From: Eubacteriales bacterium
GTDB lineage: Bacteria; Bacillota; Clostridia; Oscillospirales; CAG-272
Direction: 5' to 3'
Assembly: GCA_045593965.1 (NCBI GenBank)
Contig: JAZNXP010000032.1
Location: forward strand, 1 to 38,699
DNA: 38,699 nucleotides
Shown here: one piece after another, positions 10,935 to 17,307 of the stretch
Position numbering within the stretch: the stretch's first letter is position 1
Layout: each line of letters begins with the position of its first letter
Notes under the pieces: model-generated
The model's input: the letters and a program-made list of their open reading frames with translations, nothing else
What the model was told of the DNA's origin: nothing
Database searches by the model: none
Program-made: the position numbers and the translations under genes

Positions 10935-11651
10935 TTAAATAATAAAGACGGTACCCGTGTCCAAAAGAGGGGAGGCGGTAAGCGATATCGGAATGCGATC
11001 ATGCTCCTTGCAAAACTTTATGATCTGCTCGGCTTGCGGATGAAGATCAATGCATCCGCAAAAGTACAGCTCTCTGATCGGATGATAGGGGGAGTGGGAG
11101 GTTGCGCCGCCGATAAAGCCCGTATCATATCCTTCCAGCTCGCATCCTTGTTTGTTGACCCAAAGCGTATCCACGCCGAACTCTTGCGCGACCTTTGCGA
11201 TGGATGGGTCGGCTGTGATCAGCGCATTGTCGGAAATCGGGATCACGGAGCATTTTGCGTATCCCTGACGCGTTGAACAAAGCTCATAATCCGATCGTTC
11301 AAGAATCTGGCGCGCTACATGTTTGGGGTTGCAGAACAGCTTCTTTCCGATCGCAACGGCATTAAAAGATATTTCATTTTCATATCCCTTCGAAAGCTCA
11401 CGGTCGCAAAGGCATATCGGTCTGCCTGTGATCGAAGAAATCAAATTCAGCTCTTCCTTGGCGATTTGCGCATAGAGTTTTGTGGTATAAATGACATCGG
11501 CAGCAAAGAAGAGGAGCATATCGGGATGAGATGCGATCGGGGAAGGAAGAAACGGATGCGCGGGCAGAAGGATCGGAACGTATCCACGCTTGAAGATCAC
11601 TTCGCAAAGCTCCGTCGGTGCCCGTTGATCCAGAATGGCATGCGTTGGCAT
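10935..11651 (-). CDS. Conserved clostridial hypothetical protein (DUF6873-like, possible pentein/GME fold)
   Basis: [28 protein letters not shown] and DTGT motifs recalled for this family; AAGGAG RBS. Confidence 0.7.
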
Positions 11652-11666
11652 GAAAATCTCCTTTTA

Positions 11667-11696
11667 AAAATAAAGGGCAGACACGCCGTGTCTGCC
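11667..11696 (-). terminator. Terminator after rpmB
   Basis: GGCAGACAC-GCC-GTGTCTGCC hairpin followed on the minus strand by CTTTATTTTT. Confidence 0.7.
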
Positions 11697-11894: not shown

Positions 11895-11966
11895 TTTTGA
11901 CACCTCCTAAAAAACCTTTTACCGAAAAATCGACTTCGGTATGCAATTTACTTTACAACAAGGGTA

Positions 11967-11995
11967 ATTATACCATAAGTTTTTTGAAAATGCAA
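11967..11995 (-). promoter_or_regulatory. Sigma-A promoter of rpmB
   Basis: Minus strand TTGCAT-N17-TATAAT with TG extension. Confidence 0.75.
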
Positions 11996-12023: not shown

Positions 12024-14147
12024 TTAATCTTTTTTTATTTTATTGCATATTTCTTCCAAATTCGTCTCCGTAAGTCCGTTTGCAAGGCAAACATCCGCAT
12101 CCTTTGCGTCCTTTTCGAAAGCGATGCACACCCCACCCATTTTTTTCATCACGGTGAGCGCAAAACGGATCTCTCTGTCGTCCGATAGGCTCGTTTCCTT
12201 GCAAAGCATCAGAACGTCCGCATTGAGGATCGAACGAGCAAGCGTTGATGTTTCGGTTTGATCGGAGAGCAAAAGCGTTACCTCTGCGCCGTGTCTGTTC
12301 AAAAGGGATGCGAGTGCTTGCGCGGCGGTGTCCTCGCCTTTGGCAAGAACGGTGATCATTGTTTTTTCAGACGGGATCAGGGAAGTCTTGCGAACGATTT
12401 GGATCGTTTCCTCTTCTTCGGAGGGATGCTCGTTGGATTGAACGGTTCCGATCTCACAAAGCGGAAGCTCTTCTTGGCTTTCAATCAAAAACGCGAGTGA
12501 AAGCGGTCCTTCGCCCGCAATTTTTTGGTCGGTGATGTGACACATCAGACCGTTTTTGCTCATTTGTGCCAAGGCATCCGTCGGGCTCTGACCGAGGATC
12601 ACACTACCGCTTTGAAGCTTTTTGGCTTTTGCCCATACGGTGATCTCGTTCAAGAGCTTTCTCAACGCGATGAAGACGGGAAGTCCGTTTTCATCGGTGG
12701 GAACAGAGACAAGATAAATACGGTTTCCGACCGTTTGCAAAGAATTCGGAAGCGGAGATTGCTTGGGTGCGCTTGCAAAGACCGTTGCTTGCGGATGCTC
12801 CGCGTTGCCTTTTGCAATCAGCTGATTGGAGTGCGCGGTAAGCGCCAGCTCTGCCTGCGCACGGTAAATACCGAGAATGGTGGCACAAGCTTCCCCAACG
12901 AGCGGATCGCGATACGCTTCCGTCGGAAGATTGATGCCGATCGAGAGCGCTTGCTTGGAATAATCACAGCCGCACAATGCGAGCACACAAACAGGCACAA
13001 GTGTCGTATAGAGTGCGTTCAGAAAGAAATTGTTGCTCGTTTTCGAGGAAGCATTCGCAACAAGAAGGTCCTTGATCGGGATCGCTTGCGTTTTGGGAGC
13101 GGTGGCGGGAAAAGACAGATAGGGATTGTCGATCAACGCTCCCGCAGAATGGGTAATGCAAAGAGGAGACGTGGGATCCTCACTTGCCAGATGTGCCGAT
13201 ACGGGACGCAGCAGAGGAAGCGCGCGTACGAAAGATGCATCCACGAAGAAGGTTTCTTTATTTACGCGAGTGATCTTCAGCATCGGTTGTGCGAGCACGT
13301 CGGCAAAATAGAGCACGTGAACGCCCTTGAGCGAGGCAAAGCGATAAAGATCCTTCAGGCTTTCTTTTGGTACACGCGCGATATATGTGCCCTCATAGCC
13401 ATCAGTCAGCAGAGAGAGCGGAACGGATTCGCCTGTTTTGGAGAGACATGAGAGATTGATCCATGCACCTGCCGAAATGGAGAGCACGGCTTTGATTAAT
13501 CCGCAACGGTCGACTGTTTTCAGACTTGTGATCTGATCCGTAACGGCGGAAGCGTTAAGAAAAGCACCCAATGCGCAGTGATAGTCTCCGGCGGATTGCT
13601 TCTCTCCTTGCGTGAGCATGACGATGCAGTCATCGGTCTCTTGTTTTTTTGTTTGGTGAGAAAGCACGCGGATGCGAAAATCAGAGCCGAGCGGCAGAAG
13701 GGTGTTTTCTTCTGCGTTGGAAAGGGAAAAGGCGGTACGATCTTCAAGAAGCGGCAGAGAAGCGGTGGGATCGGTGTGTTTTCCGATCCGATCGAGATAC
13801 TCCGTTATCGTTTGGAGTGCTTCACCGAAGCCGCAGGGGGCTTTGATGCTCTGATGACACAGCTCGCGCTTTTTCATCAGATCGGCATACGTCTGTGCCA
13901 CAAAAGCATCGTTCGTCAAAAGCTCGGTCGGAGCGATCGCCGATGCGTCCGAGGACATCTGTGCGAAAAAGTGATCCCAAAGCATCAGCTCATCGATCTG
14001 CGGATCTCTCTTTGCCTTGGTACGATAATATGAAGATGCGAATTGAAGTGCCTGCACAGGCATTTTCAAATTCAGATCCTTTTTCATTTGCTCCAGCTGA
14101 GGCACTTGGTAGGAGCGAAAATTTTTAATCAAACCCAAAAGTTCCAT
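12024..14147 (-). CDS. Degenerate PurL (FGAM synthase)-like protein, probably catalytically inactive
   Basis: Collinear similarity to clostridial large PurL (LNLKM..LQFASSYY..KRDPQIDEL; CATILGIYRAQAEL; GNRIYLV..DENGLP; truncated glutaminase-like C-terminus), with active-site motifs absent; AAAGGA RBS. Confidence 0.7.
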   Translation of the reverse strand: MELLGLIKNFRSYQVPQLEQMKKDLNLKMPVQALQFASSYYRTKAKRDPQIDELMLWDHFFAQMSSDASAIAPTELLTNDAFVAQTYADLMKKRELCHQSIKAPCGFGEALQTITEYLDRIGKHTDPTASLPLLEDRTAFSLSNAEENTLLPLGSDFRIRVLSHQTKKQETDDCIVMLTQGEKQSAGDYHCALGAFLNASAVTDQITSLKTVDRCGLIKAVLSISAGAWINLSCLSKTGESVPLSLLTDGYEGTYIARVPKESLKDLYRFASLKGVHVLYFADVLAQPMLKITRVNKETFFVDASFVRALPLLRPVSAHLASEDPTSPLCITHSAGALIDNPYLSFPATAPKTQAIPIKDLLVANASSKTSNNFFLNALYTTLVPVCVLALCGCDYSKQALSIGINLPTEAYRDPLVGEACATILGIYRAQAELALTAHSNQLIAKGNAEHPQATVFASAPKQSPLPNSLQTVGNRIYLVSVPTDENGLPVFIALRKLLNEITVWAKAKKLQSGSVILGQSPTDALAQMSKNGLMCHITDQKIAGEGPLSLAFLIESQEELPLCEIGTVQSNEHPSEEEETIQIVRKTSLIPSEKTMITVLAKGEDTAAQALASLLNRHGAEVTLLLSDQTETSTLARSILNADVLMLCKETSLSDDREIRFALTVMKKMGGVCIAFEKDAKDADVCLANGLTETNLEEICNKIKKD

Positions 14148-14183
14148 TTTTTGATCCTTTCATTCGTCTTCGCGCGTATTCGA

Positions 14184-15497
14184 TCAGATCCGAAGCGTTC
14201 CAATGCATCGGTTGCCGTTATGGCGTTCAATATGCACGGGAAGCGTACACGCCTGCAACGCGCGGTCGGCTTGGCATGCCACTTCAATAAATTCTGCGGT
14301 ATGACCGTATGCGATATGATCTGTGTAGGTTTCAAATAAAACGTCCACCGTTTTTCCGATCATGCTTTCCAGAATGGAAGCTCTTGCGCACGCGGCGACA
14401 TCGGAAAGACGGGTGACACGCTCATGCTTGATTTGCTCGGGGATCTGTCCGTCCATCGTTGCGGCAACGGTTCCTTTTCGCTTGGAATAGGGAAATACGT
14501 GTACCATCAAAAAGCCCGCTTCCTTGACAAATTCAAGAGAGTCTTCAAAATCCGCTTCGGACTCGTGCGGGAAGCCCACGATCATATCGGTCGTGAACTG
14601 CACGGTCGGAAACGCCTTCCTTAAACGTTCCATGCCGTCCAAAGCCATGCGGCGATTGTATTTCCGCTTCATCAAGGCAAGTATTTTATCCGATGCGCTT
14701 TGCATGGAAAGGTGAAAGTGCGGTGCCAAGGATTTCAAGGTCGCGATGCGATCCACAAAATCCTGTTTCATCAGGGACGGATCAAGAGAGCCGAGTCGGA
14801 TCCGCCCGACGTTGGGGATCCGATCGATCTCGCAAAGCAGGTCGGCAAGCCCGTAGCCTTCAAGGTCTTTGCCGTACGAAGCGGTTTCGATGCCCGTCAG
14901 AACGATCTCGCGGCACCCGTTTTCGGTCAGCACGCGCACTTCCTCAAGTACCTGATCGGGATCCTTGGAGCGCACCGTTCCGCGCGCGCTCGGGATGATG
15001 CAATACGCGCATTTGTTCTCACAACCGTCCTCAATCTTCACGTATGCGCGTGTACGGTCAAACCGTGTGATCTGCATGCGCTCAAAGCCGTTTTGATCGG
15101 GGGTGGAGAGCTTCATGATGGGAGACGGTGCTTTTTGTCCGTTTTTCAAAAGCTCCAGCGCCGCCGTCACGACCGAGAGCTTATTGGAATTTCCTCCAAC
15201 GTAGTCCACGCCCTTGATGCTTGCTACCTCTTCGGGGGATACCTGAGAAAAACATCCGATCACAAGGATGTATGCTTTTGGATTGTTTCGGATGGCACGG
15301 CGGATGAATTGGCGTGCTTTTCTGTCCGACTCCGCGGTCACCGTACAGGTGTTGATCACGTAAACGTCGCATACCTGCGAGGGTGGGAGTATACTTGCGC
15401 CGCGTGCGATAAACGCTTCGGCGATCGCCTCGGATTCATATTGATTGACCTTGCAACCGAGGGTATAGATCCCAACGGAAAAAGAGGAATGTGACAT
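14184..15497 (-). CDS. mtaB: tRNA ms2t6A37 methylthiotransferase MtaB
   Basis: TLGCKVNQYESE, NTCTVT, radical-SAM CENKCAYCIIP..RG, HVFPYSKRKGT. True start is ATG 15497 behind AAGGAG. Confidence 0.93.
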   Translation of the reverse strand: MSHSSFSVGIYTLGCKVNQYESEAIAEAFIARGASILPPSQVCDVYVINTCTVTAESDRKARQFIRRAIRNNPKAYILVIGCFSQVSPEEVASIKGVDYVGGNSNKLSVVTAALELLKNGQKAPSPIMKLSTPDQNGFERMQITRFDRTRAYVKIEDGCENKCAYCIIPSARGTVRSKDPDQVLEEVRVLTENGCREIVLTGIETASYGKDLEGYGLADLLCEIDRIPNVGRIRLGSLDPSLMKQDFVDRIATLKSLAPHFHLSMQSASDKILALMKRKYNRRMALDGMERLRKAFPTVQFTTDMIVGFPHESEADFEDSLEFVKEAGFLMVHVFPYSKRKGTVAATMDGQIPEQIKHERVTRLSDVAACARASILESMIGKTVDVLFETYTDHIAYGHTAEFIEVACQADRALQACTLPVHIERHNGNRCIGTLRI

Positions 15498-15528
15498 AAA
15501 AGCTCCTTGGATAAAAACGTTCATCTCT

Positions 15529-15557
15529 ATTGTACCATGTTTTTTTTGAATTGTAAA
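15529..15557 (-). promoter_or_regulatory. Sigma-A promoter of mtaB (and probably the PurL-like gene)
   Basis: Minus strand TTTACA-N17-TACAAT with TG extension. Confidence 0.65.
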
Positions 15558-15598
15558 GAAAAAACACAAAAAAAGAATGTCGAATTTGCAAATTATAC

Positions 15599-15627
15599 TT
15601 GAAAAGAGAGGAGAATCGGTGTATAAT
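15599..15627 (+). promoter_or_regulatory. Sigma-A promoter of upp, divergent from mtaB
   Basis: TTGAAA-N17-TATAAT. Confidence 0.75.
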
Positions 15628-15656
15628 GAAGGTAATAAAAATAAAGGAGTGCGGTT

Positions 15657-16286
15657 ATGAGTGAATTGCATATTGTAAATCATCCCCTGATCACCCACAA
15701 GCTTTCGATCATGCGCAATAAGAAAACGGGTTCCAAGGATTTCCGCGAAATGCTGAACGAGATTGCGATGCTGATGGGCTATGAGCTGACGAGAGATCTC
15801 CCCTTGGAGGACATTCCGATCGAAACGCCTTTGACAAAAATGAAAGCAAAGATGATCTCGGGCAAGAAGCTGGCGATCGTTCCGATTCTGCGTGCGGGAC
15901 TCGGCATGGTGGACGGTCTTCTGGATCTCATTCCCGTGGCGAAGGTAGGTCATATCGGTCTTTACCGCGATCCCGAAACACATCTGCCGGTCGAATATTA
16001 TTGCAAGCTTCCGCCTGACATTCACAACCGCATCGTTATTCTCGTGGATCCGATGCTGGCAACGGGTGGCTCTGCGGTCGATGCGTTGAATATGCTCAAG
16101 GCAAAGGGCTGCTGTAACATTCGTTTCATGTGTCTGGTCGCAGCCCCCGAAGGTGTGAAGAAGGTGCAGGAGGCGCATCCTGACGTGGATATCTATACCG
16201 CTTCCTTGGACGATTGTCTCAACGAGCATGCCTATATCGTACCCGGATTGGGAGATGCGGGTGACCGTATTTTCGGAACTCTGTAA
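15657..16286 (+). CDS. upp: Uracil phosphoribosyltransferase
   Basis: [35 protein letters not shown]. Confidence 0.98.
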
Positions 16287-16341
16287 GTAAAAAAAGGAGA
16301 ACGGGGAAGCTTTGATAAGGTTCCCCGTTATTAAATTATCT

Positions 16342-17307
16342 ATGAGGATCATAACTGTCCGCAAAAACGATGCGGGACAACGGCTTGATAAGTTCCTTTC
16401 AAAGGCGATCAAGGGATTGCCGATGTCGATGATGTATAAATACATCCGAACAAAGAAGATCAAGGTCAACCGTGCGCGTACGCAGCAGAATTATATGCTT
16501 TGCGAGGGAGATGAAATTCAGCTCTTTATCAGAGAAGAGTTTTTCGGCTCTCCGGAGGAGGACAAAGGCGCGCTTTTCCGTATTGTTCCGAAGCTGAGCA
16601 TTCTTTATGAGGATGAGCATATCTTGCTTCTGAACAAGCGCCCGGGAGTTCTTGTGCATGAGGACACCGCTGCTGCCGAAAATACGCTTTTGATGCATAT
16701 GCAGGCATATCTTGCGCAAAAAGGAGAATACGATCCCGAGAATGAACAGTCCTTCGCCCCCGCGCTTTGCAACCGCATCGACAGAAATACGGGTGGCATC
16801 GTGATCGCGGCAAAAACGGCGGAAGCGTTACGTGAAATGAATGAAAAGATCCGATTGGATCAGGTGAAGAAATTCTATCTGTGCGCCGTCCACGGCATTC
16901 CGCAAAAAACTTCTGTTACGCTGCATGGATGGCTCCGTAAGAACAGCGCGGAAAACATGGTGGAGATCTCGGATGAAAAGCGACAGGGCTTTAAGGAGAT
17001 CATCACCAAATACCGTGTTTTGAAAAAGAAAAACGGAAACGCATTGCTGGAGGTGGAGCTGGTCACGGGAAGAACACATCAGATCCGCGCGCATCTTTCT
17101 CATATCGGACATCCGCTCTTGGGAGACGGAAAATACGGTATCAACCGTGCGGAGCGCACAGCGGGATATAAGTATCAGGCGTTGTATGCGTACCGTTTAA
17201 AGTTTGTATTTGAAAACAGCGAAGGAGCTCTTGGATACCTGAACGGGAAGTCCTTTGAGCTTCCTTTGCGGGAAGTTTGGTTTTTAAAGGATTTTGATCA
17301 TGAATGA
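16342..17307 (+). CDS. RluA-family pseudouridine synthase with S4 domain (RluC/RluD-like)
   Basis: GQRLDKFL S4 motif, NKRPG, catalytic RIDRNTGG, TGRTHQIRAH, GDGKYG. Start is ATG 16342 or TTG 16312. Confidence 0.93.
   Translation: MRIITVRKNDAGQRLDKFLSKAIKGLPMSMMYKYIRTKKIKVNRARTQQNYMLCEGDEIQLFIREEFFGSPEEDKGALFRIVPKLSILYEDEHILLLNKRPGVLVHEDTAAAENTLLMHMQAYLAQKGEYDPENEQSFAPALCNRIDRNTGGIVIAAKTAEALREMNEKIRLDQVKKFYLCAVHGIPQKTSVTLHGWLRKNSAENMVEISDEKRQGFKEIITKYRVLKKKNGNALLEVELVTGRTHQIRAHLSHIGHPLLGDGKYGINRAERTAGYKYQALYAYRLKFVFENSEGALGYLNGKSFELPLREVWFLKDFDHE

Follow-up and report, generated by a model that had tools for sequence, protein, structure and literature searches.

Why would a bacterium keep an open gene for a relative of a purine-biosynthetic enzyme from which every active-site motif has gone? 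The question is raised by contig JAZNXP010000032.1 of an Eubacteriales bacterium (assembly GCA_045593965.1), all 38,699 nucleotides of which are referred to here as the window. Directly behind mtaB, the gene for a radical S-adenosylmethionine (radical-SAM) methylthiotransferase, lies a gene, here called X (protein P0001), whose product is related to PurL, the synthase of formylglycinamidine ribonucleotide (FGAM). The comparisons described below indicate that X is in all likelihood a pseudoenzyme and not a pseudogene, and they suggest, more tentatively, an association with MtaB.

Homology of X to large PurL

The X frame starts with ATG and runs for 707 codons on the minus strand with zero internal stops, and an AAAGGA Shine-Dalgarno sequence lies 6 nt 5′ of the ATG. 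Reading of the sequence thus bears out what an earlier note, made from the sequence alone, had described: an intact 707-codon open reading frame with a ribosome-binding site, 36 bp behind mtaB.

A search of X against Pfam matched no family even at an E-value of 10, AIRS and AIRS_C included. The NCBIfam model TIGR01857, which describes the clostridial-type single-chain FGAM synthase, matches residues 372–573 of X with an E-value of 1.4 × 10−6 (26.1 bits); this does not reach the equivalog cut-off of 1057, compared with 1851 bits for the real PurL of the same genome. A protein database search with X produced 26 homologues of 561–761 residues (24–59% identity); the 27 proteins, X included, have no Pfam domain precomputed for them, and 'hypothetical protein' is the sole name attached to them. 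TIGR01857 is matched by all 24 aligned members of the X family, with a best E-value of 6 × 10−22. Alignment of the X family with the genome's own PurL using hhalign gave a probability of 99.6% (E-value 2.2 × 10−24), pairing residues 15–657 of X with residues 166–1031 of PurL.

The AlphaFold2 (AF2) model of X has a pLDDT of 86.8 and a pTM of 0.81. When it was used to search with Foldseek, the top 26 matches were all FGAM synthetases (best E-value 3 × 10−19). VIA superposed the model on 3viu with a Z-score of 21.7 (481 residues aligned, 4.5 Å), and its residues 1–704 on residues 155–1295 of the 6jt7 chain with a Z-score of 21.1. PDB sequence searches with X alone and with the X-family profile returned nothing significant, PurL being found by structure-based searches only. 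A search of the ESM Atlas produced clusters named 'hypothetical protein' and AIRS_C-bearing clusters at 0.84–0.90, a lead that is compatible with PurL ancestry and no more. X is a true homologue of the clostridial-type large PurL and not a chance resemblance: the duplicated PurM-like fold and the linker domain of PurL are kept in X, which shows common descent. The relationship to PurL proposed by eye in the earlier note is confirmed by these profile and structure comparisons.

Loss of active-site motifs and domains

Eight PurL motifs, the first five of which form the synthetase site, were scored as the strings SDHCRH, ETHNHP, DFGAGG, SESQER, GGKDS, PGGFS, GICNG and SHGEGR. All eight are kept by 17 of the 19 true PurLs extracted from the GTDB family of this organism, and SDHCRH, DFGAGG, SESQER, GGKDS, PGGFS and GICNG are kept in 19/19; in the remaining two proteins, the ETHNHP region is masked in one (L056) and HGEGK stands for HGEGR in the other. 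X retains 0/8. In alignments made with hhalign and MAFFT, DTYWSDHCRH is replaced by DHFFAQMSSD, DFGAGG by TVDRCG, SESQER by DGYEGT, GGKDS by HSNQL and PGGFS by CKET(S), and the ETHNHP region is deleted. GICNG reads AFEKD, with glutamate in the column of the nucleophilic cysteine, and the chain stops before the SHGEGR column (His/Glu), so that X lacks the class I glutaminase triad. The motif mapping of the earlier note was right in every item, as was its remark that the PurS-like N-terminal part is missing: the alignment begins at PurL residue 166, or residue 155 of StPurL.

The remaining chain can be divided into four parts (Table 1). The linker-like domain, the counterpart of the linker of formylglycinamide ribonucleotide amidotransferase (FGAR-AT), keeps the RDPxxxEL..xD signature, has lost SDHCRH and is the most constrained portion of X. 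Subdomain A1 has been reduced to about 45 residues from about 180 in PurL through deletion of ETHNHP and the GRTGRDG loop, and is followed by subdomain B1. The A2–B2 half conserves LGxYRAQxEL, Gly393, Arg496 and Glu556, and single-domain matches to the PurM superfamily were obtained by VIA with Z-scores of about 15 on residues 336–574 of the model. The last part is a remnant of the first half of the glutaminase domain. It appears from sequence comparison to be dispensable, because forms of about 570 residues are without it. Two X proteins of 580 residues (L014) and 721 residues (L007) share 65% identity, and the interval between the start of X and the following gene is about 354 bp less in L014.

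An acidic cluster binds metal and ATP in the PurM superfamily. No conserved acidic (Asp) cluster was seen in residues 321–575 of X among 150 aligned sequences of the family. An acidic residue of the A2 helix (VVES, VIES or VVDS) is present in 10 of the 11 true PurLs shown; the same column holds Val, Pro, Ala, Ser or Thr in six of the seven X sequences shown and Asp in the seventh (L023).

Conservation and selection

A profile search of 1.84 billion representative proteins produced 353 at an E-value of 1 × 10−30 or below, a set in which some true PurLs may be counted. The top 150 of these 353 all score above 239 bits and are 250–819 residues long, mostly about 700 or about 570. The residues that are best conserved among the 150 include Arg47, Pro49, Glu53, Asp58, Thr86, Tyr87, Asp89 and Lys93 in the linker-like domain and, further along, Asp173, Gly216, Gly393, Gly426, Tyr428, Arg429, Glu433, Arg496 and Glu556; Arg429 is present in 100%, Glu433 in 99% and Asp89 in 98% of the representatives. 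Many of these residues are common to true PurL, outside the eight motifs.

With P0001 as the query, X was found in 49 of the 401 sampled genomes of the GTDB family (15 of 97 genera), and it is present in all seven species of its own genus at 28–34% identity. The 52 X matches in the 49 genomes contain no stops. Outside the family, 0/283 genomes of the order match X at an E-value of 1 × 10−33 or below, a strict threshold set to exclude PurL itself. The ratio of nonsynonymous to synonymous substitution rates (dN/dS), calculated by NG86 for the three least saturated pairs, is 0.23, 0.17 and 0.38 for X, the corresponding ratios for mtaB being 0.13, 0.07 and 0.27; these values are approximate because dS is about 1–1.7. 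The ratio is below 0.6 in every domain of X, being lowest in the linker-like domain (0.10–0.29) and highest in the C-terminal remnant (0.45). X is under purifying selection, with intact orthologues, and in these comparisons it shows neither the frameshifts or stops nor the dN/dS near 1 of a pseudogene. The earlier note had likewise favoured selection over decay.

Origin of X in the slot behind mtaB

X directly follows mtaB in 18/18 loci and in 12/12 further X loci that were read. In relatives, the same slot is held by a functional purL. The clearest case is that of G018, in which a purL of full length with all its motifs, whose product has 60% identity to the PurL of the X genome, lies exactly where X would be. 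The coordinates of mtaB and purL were cross-matched by hand in one 101-genome sample of the family, in which 83 genomes have a purL match. The only match lies at most about 200 nt downstream of mtaB in 15 of the 83 (G018, G030, G039, G044, G045, G047, G050, G054, G068, G071, G079, G081, G082, G085 and G092), one of these pairs being confirmed by reading of locus L039, and at most about 900 nt downstream in two more (G011 and G001). The pair is also found in three of 12 loci from other families of the order (G405, G409 and G437). Since a functional purL occupies this slot in relatives, the linkage of X to mtaB appears to be inherited. The mtaB link drawn in the earlier note holds as far as position is concerned, X lying behind mtaB in all loci read and being fused to it in some proteins, and fails as evidence that a new paralogue evolved a coupling to mtaB.

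The separate intact purL that the earlier note's reference to a true PurL implies is present in the X genome (G000) on contig C149, directly downstream of purD, and encodes 1233 residues. In the ten X-bearing genomes of the sample with a purL match at the threshold used, purL is on another contig and its product is 64–73% identical to the PurL of the X genome; four further X-bearing genomes (G004, G023, G029 and G032) were counted apart from these ten. No purL was found in G023 (94% complete) or G004 (92% complete), congeners of which have it.

Intermediate forms also occur. Three genomes that have a canonical purL (G065, G072 and G041) carry in addition a divergent PurL-like gene of the full-length type. 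The G065 gene (L045:1296–5417), directly behind mtaB, is an open frame of 1374 codons with 37% identity in which SDHCRH, GGKDS and near-matches to the synthetase motifs are kept, the glutaminase cysteine is gone (GLGEGF) and SHGEGR reads ASKAGR. In G072 the corresponding frame (L044:1879–5616; 1246 residues, 34% identity), again directly behind mtaB, retains 0/8 motif strings, yet GATase_5 and AIRS_C are still recognised in it by Pfam. In G041 the C-terminal 720 residues of a PurL-like piece (L032, contig C136; 27% identity), with the cysteine lost, are visible before the contig end is reached, and another contig carries mtaB followed by an X-like start that runs off its end; the two pieces are probably one gene. 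A form of 980 residues in G022 has the PurS-like N-terminal part and a motif-less glutaminase-like C-terminal part. The forms found behind mtaB thus make up a size series from full-length eroded proteins through 980, about 700 and about 570 residues to a fused tail of about 380.

In a quick maximum-likelihood tree (48 rows, 645 columns, SH-aLRT support), X forms one group (100), and X with two intermediates forms one group (97) outside all true PurLs; because of long branches, the exact attachment point of X is unsafe. PurLs that are not linked to mtaB form a supported clade (99) that is interspersed with PurLs from other families. Among the 16 X and intermediate sequences, 15 are on average 0.3–3 points more identical to the mtaB-linked PurL type. 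Two PurL subtypes coexist within the family; the PurL of the X genome groups with one from family f20. The subtype that is not mtaB-linked is nested among PurLs from other families within the order, a placement that suggests a horizontal replacement of purL in this family. An origin of X as a recent duplicate of the resident purL was considered and rejected, the resident gene lying in the mixed clade (99) and X with its intermediates outside it.

Since position, intermediates and similarity agree, it is strongly indicated that X is the in situ remnant of an mtaB-linked purL that was made redundant. An ancestral purL directly downstream of mtaB would have given rise to X. A second purL of the other subtype, behind purD, would have taken over FGAM synthesis, after which the mtaB-linked copy could have lost its catalytic motifs and then, stepwise, the PurS-like N-terminal domain, most of A1 and half of the glutaminase domain. 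Selection would have kept the open frame and a folded core comprising the linker-like domain, B1 and A2–B2, with X co-transcribed with mtaB and, in one lineage, fused to MtaB.

The mtaB–X unit and the MtaB–X fusions

No terminator-like site was seen in a scan of the mtaB–X spacer. On the other side of X lies rpmB, which has an extended −10 promoter-like element (TGGTATAAT, 11967–11975; a by-eye reading) and a Shine-Dalgarno sequence of its own, and the terminator scan found a strong hairpin terminator 3′ of it (11676–11696). Because rpmB carries its own promoter-like site and terminator, the transcription unit is taken to be mtaB–X, with rpmB as its putative 3′ boundary and the operon apparently not continuing past X.

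In one genome (G029, contig C47; L076:1663–4167) mtaB and a short X make up a single open frame of 835 residues, in which MtaB is joined through some 20 spacer residues to the linker-like domain, B1 and a portion of A2. A database protein of 897 residues (P0170; a cluster of 41 members) is 99% identical to this fusion, and a second (P0171; 820 residues) has 58% identity overall and 39% in the X part. By-eye reading of the alignment indicates that the MtaB part is much more conserved than the X part between the two database fusions. Radical_SAM and UPF0004 are matched on both, and alignment of the X-family profile with the fusion tail by hhalign gave 98.7% (E-value 2 × 10−16). As a stop codon would restore a normal MtaB and the tail nevertheless persists at 39% identity, the tail may be useful when tethered to MtaB. 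The fusions are the sole support for an association of X with MtaB that is independent of gene order, and this support is modest, since a fusion was found in one of the 401 sampled family genomes. Prediction of a complex between MtaB (436 residues) and residues 1–563 of X gave no answer (score 0.00) and counts neither way.

Possible roles of X

The role that fits these observations best is a non-catalytic one, with X acting as an accessory to MtaB, whether as a protein or as a domain, and with the linker-like domain at its centre. This role, taken alone, is tentative and falls somewhat short of an even chance; pseudoenzyme status and the accessory role weighed together come out slightly on the probable side, and the fuller proposal that the PurL scaffold was exapted as a dedicated accessory subunit of MtaB, and as a fused domain in one lineage, is rather doubtful. 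MtaB would act here as the tRNA methylthiotransferase that forms 2-methylthio-N6-threonylcarbamoyladenosine (ms2t6A), and X could serve it, for example, as a stabiliser or docking surface, with the well-conserved linker-like domain as the likely working part.

Several observations weigh against this reading. Adjacency to mtaB alone is silent on function because it was inherited from purL, and the whole block lnt-rluD, mtaB-X-(DUF6873)-tsaE-tsaB-rpiB-ispD-ispF-rpe is collinear in these relatives. The fused form is rare, neighbouring genes may become fused by chance, and by-eye reading places K/G and S/S in the fusions at the positions of Arg429 and Glu433. X evolves fast, sheds parts and, with P0001 as the query, was not found in 82 of the 97 genera of the family; one of 18 further metagenome-assembled loci (L003) has a single in-frame stop, and the dN/dS values, as noted, are approximate. 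The fast evolution, loss of parts and patchy spread also fit slow loss under weak constraint.

This last point leads to the possibility that X is a slowly decaying relic without function, its frame held open by weak or indirect constraint (such as translation within the mtaB transcript) and heading for deletion. The progressive shortening from about 1250 to 980, 700 and 570 residues, and to about 380 when fused, would be expected of such a relic, as would the presence of X in so few genera, an identity of 27–34% where that of the neighbouring genes is 59–81%, a dN/dS 1.4–4 times that of mtaB and the stop in L003. However, frames of 2 kb are open in 52/52 places across 15 genera despite saturated synonymous sites, every domain has a dN/dS well below 1, particular residues are shared by 96–100% of the 150 representatives, the AF2 fold is confident, and the fusion tail has stayed in frame although its loss would leave MtaB intact. 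Polarity cannot explain the open frame either, because X is the last gene of its unit and rpmB has its own promoter-like site. Decay without function is therefore considered improbable.

A similarly low probability is given to a role in the purine pathway, with X binding the true PurL or another purine enzyme, or sensing a nucleotide or FGAR-like ligand, in the manner of a prozyme. The A2–B2 half of large PurL holds a structural ADP, as known for StPurL, and this half is part of the PurL scaffold that X keeps; a true purL is present in nearly all of the X-bearing genomes examined. Precedents exist in dead paralogues that activate S-adenosylmethionine decarboxylase (AdoMetDC) and deoxyhypusine synthase (DHS), and in the herpesvirus glutamine amidotransferase homologue vGAT, which is described as recruiting the cellular PurL counterpart PFAS (PMC7605207). 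The nucleotide sensor or regulator of PurL that the earlier note had proposed is nevertheless disfavoured, since X does not conserve the acidic A2-helix residue of true PurLs, has lost the GGKDS-type loop, has few conserved polar residues of its own and lies outside the purD–purL cluster; the two X-bearing genomes in which purL was not detected (G023 and G004) add a weak argument, their congeners having the gene.

Least probable of all, and clearly unlikely, is a cryptic enzyme, in which the PurM-like scaffold would have gained a new catalytic or ligand-processing activity, possibly on tRNA modified with N6-threonylcarbamoyladenosine (t6A) or on a sulfur intermediate. The PurM superfamily is chemically versatile, PurM, ThiL, SelD and HypE being structural neighbours of X at Z-scores of about 15, and a few charged residues are invariant (Arg429, Glu433, Asp89, Lys93, Arg496 and Glu556). 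Most of these are, however, common to true PurL outside the eight motifs, the A1 helices that bear the ATP/metal site of the fold are deleted, and the Asp cluster typical of the superfamily was not seen in the A2–B2 half; the fused forms differ at the Arg429 and Glu433 positions and end soon after that helix, without B2.

Genomic surroundings

The coordinates of X, its domains and the adjoining features are given in Table 1. The stop codon of mtaB is at 14184–14186, UPF0004 and Radical_SAM were matched by Pfam in its product, and 21 orthologues align to the 436 residues encoded by 14187–15494, with 54–71% identity in the 22-sequence alignment. The frame listed for mtaB (14184–16469, minus strand) is over-extended by about 325 codons, because the Pfam domains begin only at residue 332 and the orthologues cover 436 residues; the real start is at 15494. 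The over-long frame overlaps a divergent rluD-type pseudouridine synthase gene (16312–17307, plus strand).

Table 1. Features of the mtaB–X region; residue numbers refer to X.
Feature	Position in the window	Strand	Evidence
X, PurL-derived pseudoenzyme candidate (P0001)	12024–14147, stop codon included	minus	Open reading frame, hhalign, AF2, Foldseek, VIA
Linker-like domain, residues 1–125, counterpart of the PurL FGAR-AT linker	13773–14147	minus	hhalign, X 15–125 versus PurL 166–285
A1 vestige and B1 (AIRS_C-like) subdomain, residues 126–320	13188–13772	minus	Alignment gaps, motifs, model secondary structure
A2–B2 half, complete PurM-like fold, residues 321–575	12423–13187	minus	TIGR01857 match, VIA, conservation
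Remnant of the first half of the class I glutaminase domain, residues 576–707	12027–12422	minus	MAFFT motif columns; VIA range up to StPurL 1295
mtaB–X spacer, 36 bp, with AAAGGA ribosome-binding site	14148–14183	minus	Sequence reading and scan
mtaB, radical-SAM methylthiotransferase, 436 residues, first gene of the two-gene unit	14184–15494	minus	Pfam and orthologue alignment
Promoter-like site 5′ of mtaB, TTTACA-17-TACAAT with TG	15529–15557	minus	Consensus scan only
rpmB, ribosomal protein L28, 56 residues	11724–11894	minus	Sequence; Pfam Ribosomal_L28, E-value 2.2 × 10−19

The rpmB gene is not listed among the open reading frames of the window. It sits between X and a gene for a DUF6873 protein (10935–11651, minus strand; Pfam E-value 1.4 × 10−49), which is thus the second gene downstream of X, and its 5′ leader contains a hairpin with a T-run at 11941–11920. 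A DUF6873 gene is found in the neighbourhood of the X slot in 10 of 14 related loci with sufficient downstream sequence, and also in three more distant X loci. A PDB sequence search with the DUF6873 protein gave no match and a literature search gave no paper, and Rfam and tRNA scans over the window had no match.

Synteny with tsaE/tsaB, rpiB, ispD/F, rluD, lnt and guaB was considered as functional evidence and rejected. The earlier note had taken the proximity of tsaE/tsaB and guaB as a hint of a link between nucleotide status and tRNA modification; this synteny carries no weight because collinearity extends over the whole block in all relatives and because rpmB intervenes with a promoter-like site and a terminator of its own.

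Near the true purL in the same genome, the gene downstream of it (L001:3–1385, minus strand, contig C149) encodes a protein with TPR and TIR domains (TIR_2, E-value 4 × 10−11) that is possibly defence-related.

The damage in L003 is confined to a stop at codon 77 (L003:8229–8231), within the conserved TELLTND motif of an otherwise intact X orthologue, and could arise either from a recent inactivation or from an assembly error.

Relation to known systems and implications

The large clostridial PurL shares with X the fold and, from the linker onward, the domain order (linker, A1/B1, A2/B2, glutaminase), together with RDP..E....D, LG..RAQ.E/D, GLPDF and a glutamate at the end of B2, and its functional gene fills the X slot behind mtaB in relatives. 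It differs in being motif-complete and about 1240 residues long, compared with about 700 in X, in which the PurS-like domain and all eight motifs are missing and A1 is cut. The A2–B2 half of X superposes on PurM-fold proteins with Z-scores of 14–15 and on small PurL with Z-scores of 19.2–21.7; in contrast to that superfamily, X has no AIRS or AIRS_C match at an E-value of 10 and no conserved acidic cluster.

To our knowledge, pseudoenzymes are well documented in eukaryotes and viruses and have seldom been traced in bacteria. Neither a bacterial PurL pseudoenzyme nor a link between mtaB and purL was described in the full-text literature searched, and with no Pfam family either, the statement of the earlier note that no such family had been described still stands. 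The nearest described case is that of the gammaherpesvirus vGAT or vFGARAT proteins (murine gammaherpesvirus 68 ORF75a–c), PFAS/PurL homologues in which the catalytic triad is missing, which fail to complement purine synthesis and which are regarded as pseudoenzymes with a protein-binding role (PMC7605207). These are viral and host-captured, whereas X is bacterial, chromosomal, heavily truncated and mtaB-linked, and the two are likened by description only. The trypanosomatid prozymes of AdoMetDC and DHS are described as dead duplicates retained beside an active copy (PMC5201418 and PMC3663545). Like X, they have lost catalysis and are retained by selection alongside the active copy; however, they bind and activate their own active paralogue, whereas the evidence of association for X points to the unrelated enzyme MtaB.

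The main interest of this family lies in its preserved series of stages and in the MtaB fusions. Since the same slot behind mtaB is occupied by a functional purL in certain genera and by remnants at different stages of loss in others, the succession of losses can be read directly, the comparison suggesting that the glutaminase triad went first, the synthetase motifs next and whole subdomains last. The X series thus offers a natural setting in which to study why a dead enzyme is retained. For annotation, 'hypothetical proteins' of this kind of about 570–800 residues should not be named PurL, nor be used to infer purine prototrophy. If the exaptation proposed here is true, X would represent the first pseudoenzyme derived from PurL in bacteria and a new partner in ms2t6A synthesis, and if the fusions reflect a real partnership, it would be an unexpected component of ms2t6A tRNA modification in uncultured gut Clostridia.

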